Shown here piece by piece: positions 14,523 through 61,138 of a DNA stretch of 64,000 bases. The stretch is from Mycobacteriales bacterium. Lineage in GTDB: Bacteria > Actinomycetota > Actinomycetes > BP-191. The stretch spans positions 51,859 to 115,858 of the forward strand of contig DASVPJ010000042.1 in assembly GCA_036382875.1 (NCBI GenBank), written 5' to 3'. Under the pieces are notes generated by a model that had not been told where the DNA came from, did not search any database, and saw only the letters and a list, made by a program, of their open reading frames with translations. Numbering within the stretch: the first letter of the stretch is position 1; the number at the start of each line of letters is the position of its first letter. The position numbers were made by a program, and so were the translations under genes.

Positions 14523-14561
14523 GTCCGCCCTCCTCGTTCCTCCCCTACTAGTCTGCCGCGC

Positions 14562-15089
14562 ATGTACTCCGGCTCGCTCGTCCGGCTGCGCGCGCCGGAG
14601 CCGCGCGACGTGCCGGACCTGCACCGCTGGTCGAACGACCCGGCCGTCGCCTCGCTCGCCGGCGTCCGCTACCCGGTGCCGCTCGGGGCGGAGAGCGACT
14701 GGGTCGAGCGGGCGGGCGTGGGCTCGTACGCCAACTGCCAGTTCGCCGTGGAGACCCTCGACGGCGGCGTGCTGCTCGGCACCTGCTGGCTGTCGGAGAC
14801 GGCGTTGCCGGAGAACCGCTGCGCGCAGCTCGGCATCTTCCTCGGCGACCCCGCGCGGCACGGCCGCGGCTACGGCACCGACACGGTGCGGACGCTGTGC
14901 CGCTTCGGGTTCGACGAGATGAACCTGCACCGCATCGAGCTGCTGGTGTTCGCCCACCACGCCGCCGCGCGGCGGGTGTACGAGAAGGCCGGCTTCGTCG
15001 AGGAGGCGTACTCGCGCGAGGCGCACTGGGGCGACGGCGCGTGGTGGGACGACGTGCTGATGTCCCTGCTCGAGGGCGAGCTGCGGTGA
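14562..15089 (+). CDS. GNAT family N-acetyltransferase (RimJ/RimL-like), paralog 1 of 4
   Basis: Acetyl-CoA-binding motif RHGRGYGT. The N-terminal motif RLRAPEPRDVPDLHRWSNDP is conserved among the four paralogs. Confidence 0.75.
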   Translation: MYSGSLVRLRAPEPRDVPDLHRWSNDPAVASLAGVRYPVPLGAESDWVERAGVGSYANCQFAVETLDGGVLLGTCWLSETALPENRCAQLGIFLGDPARHGRGYGTDTVRTLCRFGFDEMNLHRIELLVFAHHAAARRVYEKAGFVEEAYSREAHWGDGAWWDDVLMSLLEGELR

Positions 15090-15604
15090 ACGGCGCCCTC
15101 GTCCGGCTGCGCCCGATGGAGCCGGCCGACGCCGAGGCGCAGCACCGCTGGCGCAACGACCCGGACGTGACGGTGTGGACCGGCTGGCGCTACCCGATCG
15201 CGCGGGCGGCGATCGCGCAGCGGATCGTCGGGCCGATGTCGTTCGCGAACCCGCGGTTCTCCGTCGAGCGCCTCGACACCGGCGAGCTGGTCGGCTACAC
15301 CGCGCTGCGCGACGTCACGCCCGAGTCGCGCAACGGCGAGCTCGACCTGGTGATCGGCGAGCGTTCGGCGTGGGGGCAGGGCTTCGGCACGGACACGGCG
15401 CGGACGATCTGCGCGTACGCGTTCGAGCGGATCGGGCTGCACCGCGTGCAGCTCTGGGTCGTCGCGTCGCACGCGCCGGCGATCCGGGCGTACGAGAAGG
15501 CCGGCTTCGTGCCCGAGGGCGTGGCGCGGCAGCGGTTCTACAAGCGCGGCGCCTGGCACGACGCGCTGCTGATGGCCCGGCTGGCGCCGGGACCGCGCCC
15601 GTGA
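15086..15604 (+). CDS. GNAT family N-acetyltransferase, paralog 2 of 4
   Basis: GTGA overlap with the previous gene. RLRPMEPADAEAQHRWRNDP...WGQGFGT. Confidence 0.75.
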   Translation: MNGALVRLRPMEPADAEAQHRWRNDPDVTVWTGWRYPIARAAIAQRIVGPMSFANPRFSVERLDTGELVGYTALRDVTPESRNGELDLVIGERSAWGQGFGTDTARTICAYAFERIGLHRVQLWVVASHAPAIRAYEKAGFVPEGVARQRFYKRGAWHDALLMARLAPGPRP

Positions 15605-16110
15605 TCGCCGGGTCGCTCGTCGCGCTGCGCGAGCGCCGCCCGGCGGACGTGCCGGTCGCGCGCGCGTGGTTCGCCGACCCCGAGGCGATGCGCTGGACGC
15701 TGCGGACCTACCCCGGCGGCGAGTACGACGTGCCGCGCGAGCCGCTCGGCTGGGGCACCGTCCCGCTGACCGTCGTGGACCTCGCGTCGGGCACGCCGAT
15801 CGGGCACTGCGGGCTCGGCGAGATGTCCGCCGAGCACCGCCGGGCGCTGGCCTGGCTCACCATCGGCGAGGCGGCGTACCGCGGCCGCGGCTACGGCACC
15901 GACGCGATGCGCACCCTGTGCCGGTGGGCGTTCGACAGCGTGAACCTCGCCAAGGTGGAGCTCGAGGTGATCGCCGACAACGCCGCCGCCGTCGCGGTCT
16001 ACGAGCGCGTCGGCTTCGTCCGCGAGGTCGTGCGGCGGCGGGCGCTGTGGGTGGACGGCGCGTGGCGCGACGAGTACCTCATGGGCCTGTTCCCCGAGGA
16101 GCTGCGGTGA
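15601..16110 (+). CDS. GNAT family N-acetyltransferase, paralog 3 of 4
   Basis: GTGA overlap. ALRERRPADVPVARAWFADP...RGRGYGT. Confidence 0.75.
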   Translation: MIAGSLVALRERRPADVPVARAWFADPEAMRWTLRTYPGGEYDVPREPLGWGTVPLTVVDLASGTPIGHCGLGEMSAEHRRALAWLTIGEAAYRGRGYGTDAMRTLCRWAFDSVNLAKVELEVIADNAAAVAVYERVGFVREVVRRRALWVDGAWRDEYLMGLFPEELR

Positions 16111-16613
16111 CCGTCGTGCTGCGGGCGCGCGAGCCCGCCGACGCGGCGCTGCTGGCGTCGTGGTTCGGCGACGCGGAGACGATGCGCTGGTGGGACCGCG
16201 TGTACCCGCCGCTGCCCGCCGAGGTCATGGCGGAGCGCATCGCGGCGGAGCCGCCGGTGGGGTTCGGCTCGCTGTCGTTCATGGTCGACGCGGGCCGCGA
16301 GACGGTCGGCTGGGGCGGGCTGCACCACCCGTCGCCGGAGCACCGGCACTGCGGGCTCGGCGTGCTGGTCGGGCCGGGGCACCGCGGCCGCGGCCACGGC
16401 GAGGCGGCGACGCGGGCGCTGTGCCGGTTCGCGTTCGACCGGATGAACCTGGTCCGGGTGTCGCTCACGGTCTTCCCCGGCAACGACGTCGCGCGGCGGG
16501 TCTACGAACGCGTCGGCTTCGTCGAGGAGGGCGTGCAGCGGCGGGCGTTCTGGAAGCGCGGCGAGTGGCACGACCTCGTGCACATGGCGGCGTTCCCGGA
16601 CACGCTGCGCTAG
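16107..16613 (+). CDS. GNAT family N-acetyltransferase, paralog 4 of 4
   Basis: GTGA overlap. [22 protein letters not shown]...RGRGHGE. Confidence 0.75.
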
Positions 16614-25462: not shown

Positions 25463-25878
25463 CGGTCTGGAAGCGCTTCGCGGACCTGACGCCGTACGAG
25501 GTCTACGCGATCCTCCGGCTGCGGATCGACGTGTTCGCGGTCGAGCAGTGGTGCGTCTACCAGGACCTCGACGGCCGCGACCTCGAGCCCTCGACCTGGC
25601 ACGGGTGGGCCGAGGAGGGCGGCGAGATCGTGTCGTACCTGCGCGTCCTCAACGACCCGCCGCGCGAGGTGATCGGCCGGGTCGTCACGACTCCGGCCGC
25701 GCGCGGCCGCGGGCTGGGCGCGGCGCTGATGCGCGAGGCGCTGGACCGCACGTCGCGGCCGGTGCGGATCGAGGCGCAGTCGTACCTGCGGGACTGGTAC
25801 GGGGCGTTCGGGTTCGTGCCCTGCGGGCCGGAGTACCTGGAGGACGGGATCCCGCACACGCCGATGGTGGTTGAGTAG
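25459..25878 (+). CDS. GNAT family N-acetyltransferase (ElaA-like)
   Basis: GTGA overlap with nfo. RGRGLGAALM motif. Confidence 0.7.
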   Translation: MTVWKRFADLTPYEVYAILRLRIDVFAVEQWCVYQDLDGRDLEPSTWHGWAEEGGEIVSYLRVLNDPPREVIGRVVTTPAARGRGLGAALMREALDRTSRPVRIEAQSYLRDWYGAFGFVPCGPEYLEDGIPHTPMVVE

Positions 25879-35633: not shown

Positions 35634-36323
35634 GTGCCGAACGCCGCCGTGCGCCTGCTGCGCCAGACCGAGGTCTTCTCCGCCGTGGACCCGGACACCG
35701 CCGCGCAGGTCGCGCAGCGGATGGTGCGCCGGACCTACCGGCGCGGCGAGGCGCTGTTCCACCAGGGCGACCCCGGCGACGCCCTCTACGTCGTCGCCGA
35801 CGGCACGGTTGCGGTCGTCGTGACGAGCGAGAACGGCGACCGCATGGTCCTCACCACGCTCGCCCCGCCCGACGTGCTCGGCGAGATCGCGCTGCTCGAC
35901 GGCGGCCCCCGCTCGGCGAGCGCCGAGGCGGTCGAGGACACCGCCGCGCTGATGCTGTCGCGGGCGGCGTTCGTGGAGCTGCTGCGCGACCACCCGCCGT
36001 TCGCCGAGCAGCTCCTCCGCTCGCTCGGCGGCCTGGTCCGGCGGCTGTCGGAGCAGGCGAGCGACTTCGTGTTCCTTGACCTGCCCGGCCGCGTCGCGAA
36101 GGCCGTCGTGCGGCTCGCGGACGACACCGGGCGGTCGGTCGCCGGCATCCCGGTCGAGGTGGCGGTGACCCAGCAACGCCTCGCCGAGATGGTCGGCGGG
36201 TCGCGGCAGTCGGTGAACCAGATCCTGCACGCGTTCGCCGCGCGCGGGCTGATCGAGCTGCACGGCCGCCGGCTGCTCGTCTCCAACCCCGACCAGCTCC
36301 GCCGCCGCGCCGGCCTCGGCTAG
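35634..36323 (+). CDS. Crp/Fnr family transcriptional regulator
   Basis: cNMP-binding domain (LGEIALLDGGPRSASAEAV) and a C-terminal HTH (RQSVNQILHAFAARGLI). Confidence 0.75.
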   Translation: MPNAAVRLLRQTEVFSAVDPDTAAQVAQRMVRRTYRRGEALFHQGDPGDALYVVADGTVAVVVTSENGDRMVLTTLAPPDVLGEIALLDGGPRSASAEAVEDTAALMLSRAAFVELLRDHPPFAEQLLRSLGGLVRRLSEQASDFVFLDLPGRVAKAVVRLADDTGRSVAGIPVEVAVTQQRLAEMVGGSRQSVNQILHAFAARGLIELHGRRLLVSNPDQLRRRAGLG

Positions 36324-36351
36324 CCGGCGGGGCCGGGTCGCGCCCCAACTG

Positions 36352-36397
36352 TGAAGATCGCCACGCGGGGCGGCGCGCTCCGGGCTTCACAGTTGGG
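36352..36397. repeat. REP-like palindromic element, family B copy 1 (ccccaactgtgaag ... cttcacagttgggg)
   Basis: 14-bp perfect inverted repeat with an 18-nt spacer in a convergent intergenic region. A near-identical copy is at 48044-48100. Confidence 0.6.
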
Positions 36398-36415
36398 GGG
36401 AAGCCTCGCCGCGGC

Positions 36416-37049
36416 CTACGACGGCTCCGCGTCGAGGCCCTTCTTCACCGCGTAGCGGACCAGCTCGTAGCGGGTGTGGAGCTGGAGCTTGTTGAGGACG
36501 TTCTGCACATGGTTCTGCACGGTGCGGTGCGAGAGCACGAGGCGTTCGGCGATCTGCTTGTACGTCAGCCCCTTGGCGACGAGCCGCAACACCTCGGTCT
36601 CCCGGTCGGTGAGCCGCACCTCCGGCTCCCCCGTCGTCATGGCCCGGAACGCCCCCAGCACCAGCCCGGCGAGCCCCGGCGTGAACACCGGGTCACCCGC
36701 CGCGGTCCGTTCCACGGCGGAACGCAGCTCCTCCGCGCTCGCCGACTTGACCAGGTAGCCGCTCGCGCCGGCCTTGACCGCGTCGAGCACGTCGGCGTGC
36801 TCGCCGGACGCGGAGAGCACGAGCACCCGCGCGGCCGGCACCGCCTCGGCGATCAGCCGGGTCGCGTCCACGCCGCCCATGACCGGGAGCTGGAGGTCCA
36901 TCACGACGACGTCGGGCCGGGTGGCCTTCACGACGTCGACGGCAGCCCGGCCGTCGCCGGCCGTCCCGACGACGGAGAGCCCCGCCTCGGACAGGTCGCG
37001 GGCCACCCCGTCGCGCCACATCGGGTGGTCGTCGACCACCACGACGCGG
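36416..37049 (-). CDS. LuxR/NarL-family response regulator
   Basis: Receiver domain (VVVVDDHPM...VMDLQLP) plus a LuxR HTH (LTDRETEVLRLVAKGLTYKQIAERLVLSHRTVQNHV). Confidence 0.75.
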
Positions 37050-42157: not shown

Positions 42158-42193
42158 CCCGACGCCCGCCCCACCCGCGCCCCCGCCGTGGTG

Positions 42194-42245
42194 AGCGTTT
42201 CCTGCAGCGAACGTTCTCCCGTGACGCTTCGCTGCAGGAAACGCT
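42194..42245. repeat. REP-like palindromic element, family A copy 1 (agcgtttcctgcagcgaa - 16 nt - ttcgctgcaggaaacgct)
   Basis: Perfect 18-bp inverted repeat in a convergent intergenic region. A second copy is at 61088-61138. Confidence 0.6.
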
Positions 42246-42288
42246 CGCGGCACGGGCGGCCGGGGGGCGGCGGGCGGGGCGGCGGGGG

Positions 42289-46392: not shown

Positions 46393-47076
46393 CTACGGCA
46401 GGCGCAGAACGGCCACCAGCGGCCGGTGGTCGCTCGCCTCGGCCAGCCCGGGGACGTCGTCGGGGACGCCGCAGCGCACCACCTCCAGCCGCCGGTCGGC
46501 GAACACCGCGTCGATCCGCCGCCGCGGGCGCGCCGCCGTGCTGGTCAGCCCGTCGCCGACGGGCGCGGCGGCGTAGGCGTCCTGGAACACCCCCGCGAGG
46601 TGGGCGAACGCCGGGCCGTCCGGGTCCTCGTTGACGTCGCCGGCGAGCACCGCGGGGGCGGCGTACGCGGTGAGCAGCGCGGCGATCTCGCGGGCCTGGC
46701 CGGGGCGTTCGTCGTCGTCCAGCGACAGGTGCGTGGACGCGACGACGACCGGCGTGCCGGCGACGTCGAACACCCCGATCGCGACGCCGCGCCGGTGCAG
46801 CGGCGGCTGCCAGCGCAGCCGTACCGACCGCCCCTCGACCACGCGCAGGTCGGGGCGGGCGAGCAGCAGGTTCGCGGCGGCCGGGCGGCCGCCGGTGACG
46901 ATGCGCAGCCCGGCGGCGAGCGCCAGGTCGGCGCAGCGCGCCCGCCAGCCCCAGAACCGCGGCGCCTCCTGCACGCACACGACGTCGGGCGCGCAGGCCC
47001 GGATCACCGCCGCGACCCGGTCGAGCCCCAGCCGCAGCGAGAGGACGTTGTACGACAGCACGCGCAGGTCGGTCAC
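46393..47076 (-). CDS. Endonuclease/exonuclease/phosphatase (EEP) family protein
   Basis: LRVLSYNVLS...VVCVQE...SDHRPLVAVLRL, the EEP signatures. The GTG start overlaps the arcC stop. Confidence 0.7.
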   Translation of the reverse strand: MTDLRVLSYNVLSLRLGLDRVAAVIRACAPDVVCVQEAPRFWGWRARCADLALAAGLRIVTGGRPAAANLLLARPDLRVVEGRSVRLRWQPPLHRRGVAIGVFDVAGTPVVVASTHLSLDDDERPGQAREIAALLTAYAAPAVLAGDVNEDPDGPAFAHLAGVFQDAYAAAPVGDGLTSTAARPRRRIDAVFADRRLEVVRCGVPDDVPGLAEASDHRPLVAVLRLP

Positions 47077-48008
47077 GCCGGCACCACCTCGGTGCCGGCG
47101 TCGCCGTCCAGCGCCGCGCGGGCGGCGGCGAGCGACGTGATGACCGCGCGCGGGCCGCCGTTCTCCACGAACGTGCACGCCGCGTCGACCTTCGGGCCCA
47201 TGCTGCCCTCGGGGAACTCCCCCGCCCGCAACAGCTCCCGCGCCTCGGCCGTCGTCAGCCGCGGCAGCGGCGCCGCGTCGGGCGTGCCGAAGCCGCGCTG
47301 CACGACGTCGACCTCGGTGAGGATCAGCAGCAGGTCGGCGCCGACGATCTTCGCCAGCAACGCCGCGCTGCGGTCCTTGTCGACGACCGCGTCGACGCCG
47401 CGCAGGTCGCCGTCCACGTCCACGACCGGAACGCCCCCGCCGCCGGCCGCGACGACGCAGTGCCCCGAGTCGACGATCTGCAGCAGCGGCCCCTCCTCCA
47501 CGAACCGCACCGGGCTCGGCGACGCGACCACGCGGCGCCACCGCTTGTCCGGCTGGATCGTGAACACCTGGCCGGTCTCGTGCGCGATGCGCTGCGCGGT
47601 GGGGCGGTCGTAGAACGGCCCCACGGGCTTCGTCGGCCGCCGGAACGCCGGGTCGCGGCCGTCCACGACGACCTGCGTCACGAGGCAGAGCGCGCGGACG
47701 TCGGAGCCGCGGGCGCGCAGGGCGTTGTCGAGGGCCTGGGCGAGCAGGTAGCCGATCTGGCCCTGCGACTCCGCGCCGCAGACGTCCATCGGCATCGCCG
47801 GGATGTCCGGTGCCGCCGCCTCCTGCTGGAGCAGGATGCGGCCGACCTGCGGGCCGTTGCCGTGGGTGATGACGACCTCGACGCCGGTGGTGACGAGGTC
47901 GGCGAGGTGCCGGCAGGCGACCGCGAGCGCGCCGCGCATCTCGTCGGCGGTGCCCGTGCCGCGCGGCGGCGAGAGGGCGTTGCCCCCCAGCGCGACGACG
48001 GCTCTCAC
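47073..48008 (-). CDS. arcC: Carbamate kinase
   Basis: MRAVVALGGNAL...ITHGNGPQVG... and GGGGVPVV motifs. Confidence 0.8.
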   Translation of the reverse strand: MRAVVALGGNALSPPRGTGTADEMRGALAVACRHLADLVTTGVEVVITHGNGPQVGRILLQQEAAAPDIPAMPMDVCGAESQGQIGYLLAQALDNALRARGSDVRALCLVTQVVVDGRDPAFRRPTKPVGPFYDRPTAQRIAHETGQVFTIQPDKRWRRVVASPSPVRFVEEGPLLQIVDSGHCVVAAGGGGVPVVDVDGDLRGVDAVVDKDRSAALLAKIVGADLLLILTEVDVVQRGFGTPDAAPLPRLTTAEARELLRAGEFPEGSMGPKVDAACTFVENGGPRAVITSLAAARAALDGDAGTEVVPA

Positions 48009-48043
48009 ACGCCGACCCTAGAGTTGCGAGGCCACCGGCCGCT

Positions 48044-48100
48044 CCCCAACTGTGAAGATCACCACGCGGGAACGGCGCGGCCCGGGCTTCACGGTTGGGG
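48044..48100. repeat. REP-like palindromic element, family B copy 2
   Basis: ccccaactgtgaagatcaccacgcggg...ggcttcacggttgggg. Its right arm encodes the last codons and stop of the upstream LLM oxidoreductase gene. Confidence 0.6.
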
Positions 48101-48898
48101 CTCGGCCCGCACCAGCGGCAGCACCTCGCGGGCGAACACCCGCCGCTGCCCGTCCGCGTCCCCGCCCACGAACGCCACGATCGCCTCCGCCACCCCCGCC
48201 GCCGCCAGCCCGCGCAGCCGCTCCGCCACCTCGGCCGGCGTCCCGGTCAGGGCCCGCTCGCGTTCGGCCGGGTCGCGCCCGGGCGACCACGACGCGAGCC
48301 GCGCGGCCGCCTCCTCCGCCGAGCCGCCGAGGACCACCTGCCCGCCCCACGTCACCTCGACCCCGAGCCGCGGCACCTCGCCGGCGAGCAGCGCCCAGCC
48401 GTTCCAGCCGTCCGCGACGTCCTCGGCCAGCGCCTGCGTCAGCCGGCCGTTCCCGCCGACCCACACCCGCAGGTCCGGAACGACCTCCCGCAGCACGCCG
48501 ACGGTCGTGCGCACCGCGTCGCGCCGCGCGGGGCCGGGCAGGTGCGGCAGGCCGAGCAGCGCGTCCTCGCGCGCGCTGCTCGCGTCGCCGGTGCCGAGCC
48601 CGAGCACGAACCGGTCGCCGGCCACCGCCCGCACCGTCCGCGCCAGGTGCGCGGTGAGGAACGCCGGCCGCATCGGCGCGCGCACGACGAGCGTCCGCAG
48701 CCCGATCCGCGACGTCGCGGCGGCGACCGCGGCCAGCGCCGTGAACGCCTCCAGCACCGGCGTGCCGTCCGGCGCGCCGAGCGGCACCAGGTGGTCGTAG
48801 ACGGACAGCGAGTCGTAGCCCAGGTCCTCGGCCTCGCGCGCGACGTCGAGGAACGTCCGGTCGAGGCGGCGTTGCGGCAGCGCGGTGCCGACCCTCAC
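48089..48898 (-). CDS. LLM-class (luciferase-like monooxygenase) probable F420-dependent oxidoreductase
   Basis: VRVGTALPQRRLDRTFLDVAREAEDLGYDSLSVYDH..., a typical LLM N-terminus. GTG start. Confidence 0.7.
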   Translation of the reverse strand: MRVGTALPQRRLDRTFLDVAREAEDLGYDSLSVYDHLVPLGAPDGTPVLEAFTALAAVAAATSRIGLRTLVVRAPMRPAFLTAHLARTVRAVAGDRFVLGLGTGDASSAREDALLGLPHLPGPARRDAVRTTVGVLREVVPDLRVWVGGNGRLTQALAEDVADGWNGWALLAGEVPRLGVEVTWGGQVVLGGSAEEAAARLASWSPGRDPAERERALTGTPAEVAERLRGLAAAGVAEAIVAFVGGDADGQRRVFAREVLPLVRAEPQP

Positions 48899-53719: not shown

Positions 53720-53728
53720 GCGCCGAGC

Positions 53729-54496
53729 CTACGGGAGGTCGAGGACGTACGGCTCGCCGCGCCCGCGGAAGTGGCCGACGTTGACGCACTGCGTCCGCCC
53801 GAGCCGGACCGCCGGCAGCAGCGGGCTGTGCACGTGGCCGAACAGGCAGTACGCCGGCTGCGTCGTGCGGATCGCGTCGAGCACCGCCTCGCTGCCGCGT
53901 TCGAAGCGCCGCGCGGCGGTGTCGTAGACCAGCCACGGCAGGTGCGGCGGGATGTGGCAGCACAGCACGTCCACCGCGCCGACCGCCGCGACCTTGGCGG
54001 CGTACTCCTCGTCGGAGATCTCGAACGGCGTCCGCATCGGCGTGCGCAGCCCGCCCCCCACGAAGCCGAACGTCAGCCCGCCGATCTCGACCGTCTCGCC
54101 GTCCAGCAGCGTGATGCCGTCGCGCAGGTAGTCGGCGTAGAGGTGCGGCAGGTCGACGTTGCCGTACGTCAGGTACGTCGGCGTCGGGAACGCCGCGAAC
54201 AGCTCCGCGTACTGCGCGCGGATCGCCCGCTCCATGACCGCGAACCGGTCCTCCGCGATCGACGACCACAGCTCCTGCGACCACGCGCGCGCGTCGTCGA
54301 AGCGGCGCGCGGTGCGCAGCTCGACCAGCTTCGCGACCGCGGCCACGCCGAACAGGTCGGCCATGATCCCGGAGTAGTCGTCGTAGTCGATGAAGTGGAT
54401 GAGGTCGCCGAGGCAGACCAGCGCGTCGGCGCCGTCGCCGGCCCGGGCGAGCGCGTCGGCGCGGCCGTGGACGTCGCTCACCACGTGCACGCGCAT
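53729..54496 (-). CDS. Metallophosphoesterase
   Basis: MRVHVVSDVHG...LVCLGDLI...GNVD, the calcineurin-like phosphoesterase motifs. Confidence 0.75.
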   Translation of the reverse strand: MRVHVVSDVHGRADALARAGDGADALVCLGDLIHFIDYDDYSGIMADLFGVAAVAKLVELRTARRFDDARAWSQELWSSIAEDRFAVMERAIRAQYAELFAAFPTPTYLTYGNVDLPHLYADYLRDGITLLDGETVEIGGLTFGFVGGGLRTPMRTPFEISDEEYAAKVAAVGAVDVLCCHIPPHLPWLVYDTAARRFERGSEAVLDAIRTTQPAYCLFGHVHSPLLPAVRLGRTQCVNVGHFRGRGEPYVLDLP

Positions 54497-61087: not shown

Positions 61088-61138
61088 GCGTTTCCTGCAG
61101 GGAACGTTCGCCGGCGCGACTTCGCTGCAGGAAACGCT
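61088..61138. repeat. REP-like palindromic element, family A copy 2 (between cysD and cysN)
   Basis: gcgtttcctgcagggaa-16 nt-ttcgctgcaggaaacgc, with one mismatch relative to a perfect 17-bp inverted repeat. Confidence 0.6.

Follow-up and report, generated by a model that had tools for sequence, protein, structure and literature searches.

Dispersed palindromic repeats at the ends of genes of an uncultured Frankiaceae lineage, with features of REP and REPIN elements

Introduction

REP-type repeats have been studied mainly in Proteobacteria. The REP literature that we surveyed held no account for Frankia/Frankiales or other major actinobacterial genera, with one table listing three Actinomycetota genomes. 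Here we consider a 64,000-nt stretch of actinobacterial DNA (the window, meaning the whole of the sequence analysed), the source of which is an uncultured Frankiaceae/Mycobacteriales MAG. Two closely similar palindromes stand in it at the ends of unrelated genes, and one of them runs into the reading frame of a conserved enzyme. What are these palindromes, how did the same hairpin come to lie in two places, and how does a repeat come to spell the end of a protein? We call the family B, its window copies W1 and W2, and the window genome W.

Results

Two copies of one hairpin in the window

Both copies consist of 14-nt arms, CCCCAACTGTGAAG and CTTCACAGTTGGGG, around a loop (Table 1). The W1 stem is perfect over 14 bp, while the right arm of W2 carries a single mismatch, an A-to-G change at 48093 that turns the arm-encoded CTG (Leu) into CCG (Pro). 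The copies share their chromosomal orientation and are 88% identical across the entire element, loop included. A search of the window with the 14-mer arm, allowing up to two mismatches, returned exactly four matches, namely the four arms of W1 and W2, a number attained by none of 100 shuffles. Folded as RNA, the hairpins reached −38 to −47 kcal/mol (z of −3.9 to −5.4 relative to shuffles); folded as DNA, their z scores were −3.3 to −5.1. The identical window sequence was found in independent ENA, JGI and Logan assemblies, and the JGI contig Ga0334905_000014 (L022) matches window positions 25622–46323 at 100% identity, W1 included. Chance would give 0.08 arm matches where we count four, and the same sequence was assembled independently; we therefore regard coincidence or an assembly artefact as a scarcely credible source of the W1/W2 similarity.

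W1 sits in the middle of a 92-nt convergent gap, between a Crp/Fnr-family gene and a response regulator gene. The right arm of W2 reaches into an LLM-class oxidoreductase gene, whose reading frame ends GAG CCC CAA CCG TGA, with the Pro-Gln-Pro codons and the TGA (48089–48091) inside the arm. On its other side, W2 precedes an arcC-like carbamate kinase gene. A first-pass annotation of the window had placed both copies in this gene context, with copy 2 in the 5' region of arcC and its right arm encoding the last LLM codons and stop, and had described a 14-bp stem; all of this agrees with our results, as do its span for copy 2 and its view of family B as a genuine dispersed palindromic repeat distinct from a second window family, A. 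Two of its figures needed correction: the first copy, placed at 36352–36397, starts 9 nt earlier, so that part of the left arm had been cut off, and the identity of about 85% was slightly low.

Table 1. Coordinates of the genes and palindromes discussed. Sites are the gene-end gaps numbered in the text.
Feature	Locus	Span	Strand	Details
Crp/Fnr-family regulator gene	window	35634–36323	+	stop 36321–36323, 19 nt before W1
Family B copy W1	window	36343–36398		site 1; arms 36343–36356 and 36385–36398, 28-nt loop; 82.6 bits (covariance model)
Asymmetric core GAAG-ATCGCCACGCGGGG	window	36353–36370	+	end of left arm and 5' part of loop in W1
LuxR/GerE-type response regulator gene (Response_reg+GerE)	window	36416–37042	−	stop 36416–36418, 17 nt past W1
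Family A copy 1	window	42193–42246		19-bp arms GAGCGTTTCCTGCAGCGAA, 16-nt loop; ArgZ-like/guanylate cyclase convergent gap (site 4)
arcC-like carbamate kinase gene (AA_kinase)	window	47073–48008	−	GTG start; W2 lies 36 nt upstream
TAGGGT, −10-like TANNNT hexamer	window	48015–48020	−	6 nt upstream of arcC GTG
Family B copy W2	window	48044–48100		site 2; arms 48044–48057 and 48087–48100, 29-nt loop; 79.9 bits (covariance model)
LLM-class oxidoreductase gene (Bac_luciferase)	window	48089–48898	−	269 aa; ends within W2 right arm
Family A copy 2	window	61088–61137		13-bp arms GCGTTTCCTGCAG, 24-nt loop; between CysD-like (PAPS_reduct) and CysN-like (GTP_EFTU) genes
Family B copy Z1	L024	10681–10746		Crp/response regulator gap (site 1)
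Family B copy Z4	L024	16465–16530		ArgZ-like/guanylate cyclase gap (site 4)
Family B copy Y2	L004	10838–10903		LLM/arcC gap (site 2)
Family B copy V2	L028	10785–10850		LLM/arcC gap (site 2); 46 bits, E = 5e-9
Family B copy V5	L030	6963–7028		FGGY/small-gene gap (site 5); 20.8 bits
Family B' copy	L027	2952–3022		site 1; 18–19-nt arms GCCTACTGGTGAGTAGCG, 35-nt loop
Family B' copy	L007	10810–10880		site 2; arms and loop length as above
Family B' copy	L026	5081–5153		site 3; arms and loop length as above
Family C palindrome	L011	4985–5045		arms CTTCGTGATCTTGGCGAGGTCT; LLM 3' end
Family C palindrome	L029	10812–10865		arms GTGATCTTGGCGACGTT; LLM 3' end
Another palindrome	L009	10816–10870		12–14 bp, CAACTTCCAGTG; LLM 3' end

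Between W2 and arcC stands a −10-like TANNNT hexamer, and TANNNT followed after 6–8 nt by the start codon recurred in five of five arcC-bearing orthologous loci checked (L004, L007, L009, L028 and L029). From general actinobacterial knowledge we take it to be a leaderless promoter just downstream of W2. The same kind of hexamer (TAGGCT, TAGGGT or TACGGT) lies 6–8 nt before the start of a Polyketide_cyc2-family gene at eight orthologous loci (~53720–53735 in the window), at times overlapping the stop codon of the upstream gene. The spacing at the arcC and cyclase genes, read in the window and in L004, L007, L009, L010, L026, L028 and L029, suggests leaderless transcripts.

No U/T-tract follows W1 or W2 on either strand, and a consensus scan detected neither a canonical terminator nor a canonical promoter around either copy. 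No Rfam family matched the window at its gathering score; in searches by E-value nothing but generic microRNA-hairpin models came up, with 13–25 bits against thresholds of 50–140. Pfam searches of 27 window ORFs and of the gene calls of the fetched loci gave no transposase of any kind, Y1_Tnp included.

Family B in related species

The LLM and Crp orthologues led us to syntenic loci in eight other species, at 75–86% DNA identity to the window. Four of these species are denoted here by letters: Z (L024 and L026), Y (L004 and L023), V (L028 and L030) and X (L007 and L027, two contigs that were obtained from separate samples and possibly represent two genomes); the others are L009, L010, L011 and L029. 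With a covariance model and manual reading, we recognized seven copies of family B in four gene-end gaps of four species, W, Z, Y and V (Table 1). The model was made from five copies and recovered V2 and V5 although they were absent from it; across 444 kb of fetched sequence it returned no copies beyond the seven. The species that carry B share just 78–86% DNA identity across the compared loci, a time depth that marks the family as old. The density amounts to about one copy per 15–30 kb, counted over 64 kb of this genome, with its two copies, and 14–34 kb per related genome. All seven copies occupy gaps at gene 3' ends, either convergent or leading from a stop codon to the next promoter, and for W2 and V2 the overlap with a stop codon amounts to 12 nt.

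We also scanned wider collections. An exact two-arm scan of GTDB genome representatives gave no match, and an exact-pattern scan of JGI metagenomes gave no further B copies. The JGI scan is demonstrably incomplete: it did not return L022, which is identical to the window and includes W1, and so the negatives from these collections, including the correspondingly weak GTDB result, cannot mean absence. Exact-pattern scans of viral contigs, which were not exhaustive, returned nothing for B, for its core or for the related family B' described below, and a BLAST search of PLSDB plasmids with B and B' gave only partial matches at chance level. One candidate from JGI, a 15-bp perfect palindrome (TCCAACTGTGAAGCG...CGCTTCACAGTTGGA, 14-nt loop) at 1556–1599 of Ga0208980_10006992 (L002), has 12 nt in common with the B arm and lies on an unrelated contig of about 55% G+C; we judged it a chance match because it scored only 19.9 bits with the B model, and in very large databases 12-nt arm matches can come about by coincidence.

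In the seven-copy alignment the best conserved part is an asymmetric core, G[A/G]AG-ATCGCCACGCGGGG, made up of the end of the left arm and the first half of the loop, whereas the other half of the loop is variable. The 14-nt loop part of the core is identical in W1, Z1 and Z4, and retains 12 of 14 positions in W2 and Y2, 11 of 14 in V2 and 10 of 14 in V5. The arms are relatively A+T-rich. Pairing has been kept across the family: 80.6% of stem cells are paired, 5 of the 14 stem positions have changed on both sides, and the covariation score of 0.255 compares with 0.141 in shuffles (reached by 8 of 500). Sliding the partner collapses the pairing. In V2 the outer, distal arm has become CGAG, which pairs with the LLM codons CTC-G. 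Stem mismatches comprised five G.T and three A.C, and they thus give no signal as to which strand folds, or whether it folds as RNA or as DNA.

Copies of one genome resembled each other at least as much as they resembled their positional counterparts. Identity within genomes was 88% for W1–W2, 80% for Z1–Z4 and 70% for V2–V5; between orthologous copies it was 77% for W1–Z1, 70% for W2–V2 and 67% for W2–Y2. The arms have genome-specific forms, GAAG/CTTCACAG in W, GGAG/CTCCACTG in Z and TGAAG/CTTCAGGG in V. On the basis of three copy pairs, the B copies thus appear to group by genome and not by site. The reading that we favour, at roughly two chances in three, is that B is a lineage-restricted family of ~56-nt non-coding dispersed palindromes in an uncultured Frankiaceae clade, similar to REP and REPIN elements and mobilised or homogenised in trans.

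Occupancy of the gene-end gaps

B copies persist at the same sites across species and have decayed in some lineages. At the Crp/response regulator gap (site 1), W has a perfect B, Z a decayed B, X a B' element, Y a glyoxalase-family gene (L023 3880–4323) and V only 24 nt. At the LLM/arcC gap (site 2), B is present in W, decayed in V and stripped of its gene-proximal arm in Y. X has B' arms there, around a loop with a 12-mer, CCACGCGGGAAC, in common with W2; L009 has another palindrome, L011 and L029 have members of a family C, and L010 has a 13-nt gap. In Z, site 2 has taken up a 158-aa gene without a Pfam match, on the opposite strand (L026 10795–11271). The Metallophos/cyclase gap (site 3) holds B' in Z only and is a palindrome-free 9–34 nt in seven other species. 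Family A fills the ArgZ-like/guanylate cyclase gap (site 4) in W and a decayed B in Z, and the gap measures 7 nt in Y and 33 nt in V. The FGGY/small-gene gap (site 5) holds B in V only.

Most of the species examined have a long palindrome, of one family or another, in these gaps, and the gaps, filled by palindromes in some species and by small genes in others, appear to be general insertion hot spots. Their recurrent filling could also reflect selection for any hairpin at these positions.

Two oddities in species Z may be recorded here. The asymmetric loop of Z1 is inverted relative to that of W1 in the orthologous gap, which could be the product of recombination from arm to arm or of an independent insertion. 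Next to the decayed Z4, at L024 16530–16585, lie four tandem copies of the 14-mer GGGATCGGCCGGGC.

Sibling families

The arms of the B' copies, which lie on three metagenome contigs at three different sites, contain an identical 18-nt stretch. They are mini-palindromes in themselves, CTAC-TGGTGA-GTAG, and they enclose loops that differ apart from an internal ACTGGTGAC, a repeat of part of the left arm. B' and B arms are similar (CCAACTG-TGA--AG against CCTACTGGTGAGTAG); we treat B' as a separate family because the B covariance model misses its copies. Two B' copies stand at the sites that hold B in the window, and the third is at a new site in species Z. Since that gap is empty of palindromes in W, X, Y, V, L009, L010 and L029, the L026 copy is by parsimony a new insertion. 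The L007 copy looks as if B' arms had replaced B arms around an older loop, whose 12-mer it shares with W2.

The palindromes at the LLM 3' end of L011, L029 and L009 belong to more distant species, and families C and B have a motif, AAGATCAC/GTGATCTT, in common. Family A was found in none of the other fetched loci apart from the window duplicate L022. Its second copy likely lies inside a cysD-cysN operon.

Insertion at an otherwise empty gap, terminal inverted repeats and genome-specific arms are what one would see if the copies were MITEs, with the 14–19-nt arms serving as the terminal inverted repeats of an IS elsewhere in the genome. At 56–73 nt, however, they would be very small MITEs, their best conserved segment is internal and asymmetric instead of terminal, and the fetched loci contained no IS element. 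The flanks of W1, W2, Z1, Z4, V5 and the three B' copies showed no consistent target-site duplication, and for this reason we set the MITE reading aside as improbable.

Integron attC sites offer another precedent for recombining palindromes. Their boxes read RYYYAAC (R'') and GTTRRRY (R'), and they carry extrahelical bases and stand in cassette arrays next to intI. The outer 7 nt of B, CCCCAAC and GTTGGGG, match this consensus at six of seven positions per box, and both the palindromic architecture and the length of 56–57 nt are attC-like. The window copies are nevertheless singletons, 11.7 kb apart among conserved syntenic housekeeping genes, their stems include no extrahelical bases, and the AAC/GTT ends are missing from B', C and A. 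With neither a cassette array nor an integrase nearby, an attC-like origin is hardly tenable.

Function as transcript hairpins or operators

The copies are all found at the 3' ends of genes, in a convergent gap or just before the −10-like hexamer of the next gene. This position, together with the very stable predicted hairpins, the compensatory changes (V2 pairing with coding sequence among them) and the presence of some long palindrome in these gaps in most species, would suit functional transcript hairpins (terminators that act with or without a factor, stabilisers of the 3' end, or insulators) that selection retains where transcription units end and that resemble one another through occasional copying. 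Intrinsic termination by mycobacterial RNA polymerase requires a U-tract (PMC3993855), and no B copy is followed by a T/U-tract; canonical terminators, G+C-rich hairpins whose short loop contrasts with the 28–29 nt of the window copies, were undetected and no Rfam family matched. Nor is the orientation of the core fixed relative to transcription, as Z1 and W1 show at one site, and the mismatch counts bear no strand signal. Some species make do with 7–24 nt or with another gene in the same gap, and the family A copy at 61088–61137 sits within the cysD-cysN pair. The absence of U-tracts, the inconsistent orientation, the empty sites and this family A copy all weaken the idea that the elements exist as transcript hairpins, which we consider possible though unlikely as the explanation in its own right; as a role for the hairpins it is compatible with a dispersed repeat family.

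Hairpin-only ('I-shaped') terminators have been proposed for actinobacteria. Like B, they are stable hairpins that lack a U-tract and stand where transcription units end, also in convergent gaps. In contrast, 88% identity at unlinked loci, a conserved loop and insertion polymorphism are not expected of terminators.

The neighbouring Crp/Fnr regulator made operators for a transcription factor a further candidate. The arms contain the CRP half-sites TGTGA and TCACA, one copy adjoins the crp-family gene and the other precedes arcC, and Crp-family ArcR proteins regulate arcC in some bacteria. However, the half-sites stand 31 nt apart, not 6 as in TGTGA-N6-TCACA. Whereas such a dyad should keep a fixed distance from its promoter, the element and the arcC −10 hexamer are separated by 23 to 37 nt, and the spacing at a different site is 16 nt. 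W, X, Z and Y differ in their arms but share one and the same Crp recognition helix region, GGSRQSVNQILHAF. W1 lies downstream of crp, not upstream, and the remaining copies adjoin unrelated genes. We rejected a Crp operator because of the half-site spacing, the changing position and a recognition helix that does not vary, and we rate the operator reading as very improbable.

The LLM C-terminus and the age of its palindrome

The orthologues of the LLM oxidoreductase share a conserved ...FAREVLPL[LV] followed by 0–15 variable residues, and these short tails track whichever palindrome is present. The first-pass annotation had pointed to the C-terminus of LLM orthologues as a check, as an identical end in relatives without a flanking palindrome would speak for chance similarity; we found the EPQP tail in none of them.

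Comparison of the site across species gives the overlap a history. The V protein has LVP* at its end, specified by CTC GTT CCC TGA-AG, which is the gene-proximal arm of the decayed B. V and Y have an older form of this arm, CTCGTTCC(C/T)TGAAG, which in Y survives as a non-coding relic, CTCGTTCCTTGCAGC. W has 15 extra nt, which convert its arm to the W1 type, CCCCAAC(C)GTGAAG, and produce the tail RAEPQP*. An arm of another family supplies the LLM stop in X (…GPTGE*) and L011 (…RPS*).

Because B-type elements are found in this gap in Y (L004) and V (L028) and in chimeric form in X (L007), and because the in-arm TGA of V is the LLM stop, both the site and the stop overlap are old. The alignments indicate that the LLM/arcC gap has been occupied since before these species split, and that the element overlapping the LLM stop is older than the separation of V from W, Y and Z. 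On the same comparison, what is derived in this lineage is the W2 arm next to the gene, together with the RAEPQP tail that it encodes, probably through re-homogenisation or re-insertion. Recent mobility or recombination, which the first-pass annotation had read from the repeat at the C-terminus, thus stands in part: the C-terminus is repeat-derived and the arm appears to have been converted recently, whereas the site is old and not the product of a recent insertion.

Discussion

Comparison with known repeat systems

Family B has much in common with REP and REPIN elements, which are mobilised by RAYT, a Y1, IS200-like transposase (Nunvar 2010, PMC2817692; Bertels & Rainey 2011, PMC3116915). Both are short, non-coding extragenic palindromes found mostly at gene 3' ends, without target-site duplication and with an occasional stop-codon overlap, and in both several families coexist per genome. 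REP/REPIN populations persist vertically, with a genome-specific master sequence and older copies that decay (PMC3116915; bioRxiv 10.1101/2021.07.10.451892), and B likewise combines likeness within a genome with long vertical persistence at orthologous sites, genome-specific sequences and decayed older copies.

There are also differences. A GTAG tag, conserved as GT[A/G]G at the 5' end of the hairpin, defines REPs (PMC2817692, PMC3733652), whereas GTAG or GTGG stands at either hairpin boundary in none of the seven B copies, which begin CCCCAAC and end GTTGGGG; in B', CTAC...GTAG falls inside each arm and not at the tag position. RAYT-associated REPs are present in tens to hundreds of copies per genome, and their cognate RAYT gene is single-copy and usually has REPs on its flanks; we found no RAYT gene within the ~64 kb of this genome that is visible or in the fetched loci. 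The architecture also differs, in that a REPIN pairs two inverted REP hairpins of 20–25 nt, whereas B has one 14-bp stem around a 28-nt, half-conserved loop. The label 'REP-like' given to the window copies at first pass is therefore apt as an analogy, with the defining GTAG tag and RAYT gene not found.

Neisserial Correia/NEMIS, enterobacterial ERIC and Stenotrophomonas SMAG elements and the GTAG- and CGTC-tagged repeats (Di Nocera 2013, PMC3733652) are likewise intergenic and hairpin-forming. They constitute species-specific families that can be co-transcribed and affect mRNA ends. B is unrelated to them in sequence and carries neither GTAG nor CGTC.

How the copies may have arisen

We propose that a process acting in trans generates or homogenises the B copies within each genome. 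The agent could be an enzyme of the RAYT/IS200 type that recognises single-strand hairpins and would read the arm together with the asymmetric core; the conservation of this core points to a site of recognition or cleavage such as these enzymes use. Alternatively, the process may be gene conversion or template switching between hairpins. The host would either tolerate the hairpins or exploit them as insulating or transcript 3'-end structures. This lineage would have re-homogenised an old element at the LLM gene, remaking its gene-proximal arm and giving the protein a new five-residue tail and stop.

A broader proposal, which we hold tentatively and judge unlikely as it stands, takes B, B', C and A together as vertically persistent, REPIN-like replicators of Actinomycetota that operate without GTAG or RAYT, or else sees in the conserved half of the loop a protein-bound RNA motif of the 3' ends of many mRNAs. 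If the former were true, an undescribed enzyme would recognise the arm plus ATCGCCACGCGGGG and direct the copying or conversion of elements mainly to hairpins already present at gene ends, and the same 'landing pads' would be overwritten again and again, sometimes rewriting protein C-termini.

Significance

Under the favoured reading of a dispersed repeat family acted on in trans, B is a newly described family in an actinobacterial lineage, and would extend REPIN-like population behaviour (orthologous persistence, genome-specific variants and decay) to high-G+C Gram-positives lacking the canonical GTAG. Since it fits a known kind of element, the result is useful and not surprising. It offers a concrete case in which a repeat seems to have remade the last codons and stop of a conserved enzyme gene, and one in which different repeat families and inserted genes reuse the same intergenic gaps. 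For annotation, such hairpins can account for C-terminal tails that vary from one orthologue to the next, and show where transcription units end.

The window contains repeats of other kinds as well. Four tandem paralogues of a GNAT acetyltransferase (Acetyltransf_3), each of ~170 aa, occupy 14559–16613 on the plus strand with a period of ~510 nt and 60–72% DNA identity. At 464–1292, extremely G+C-rich tandem repeats with a 9-nt period, of the (GGCGGCGCG)n type, lie in a long minus-strand ORF in which they would encode a Pro/Ala-rich stretch.
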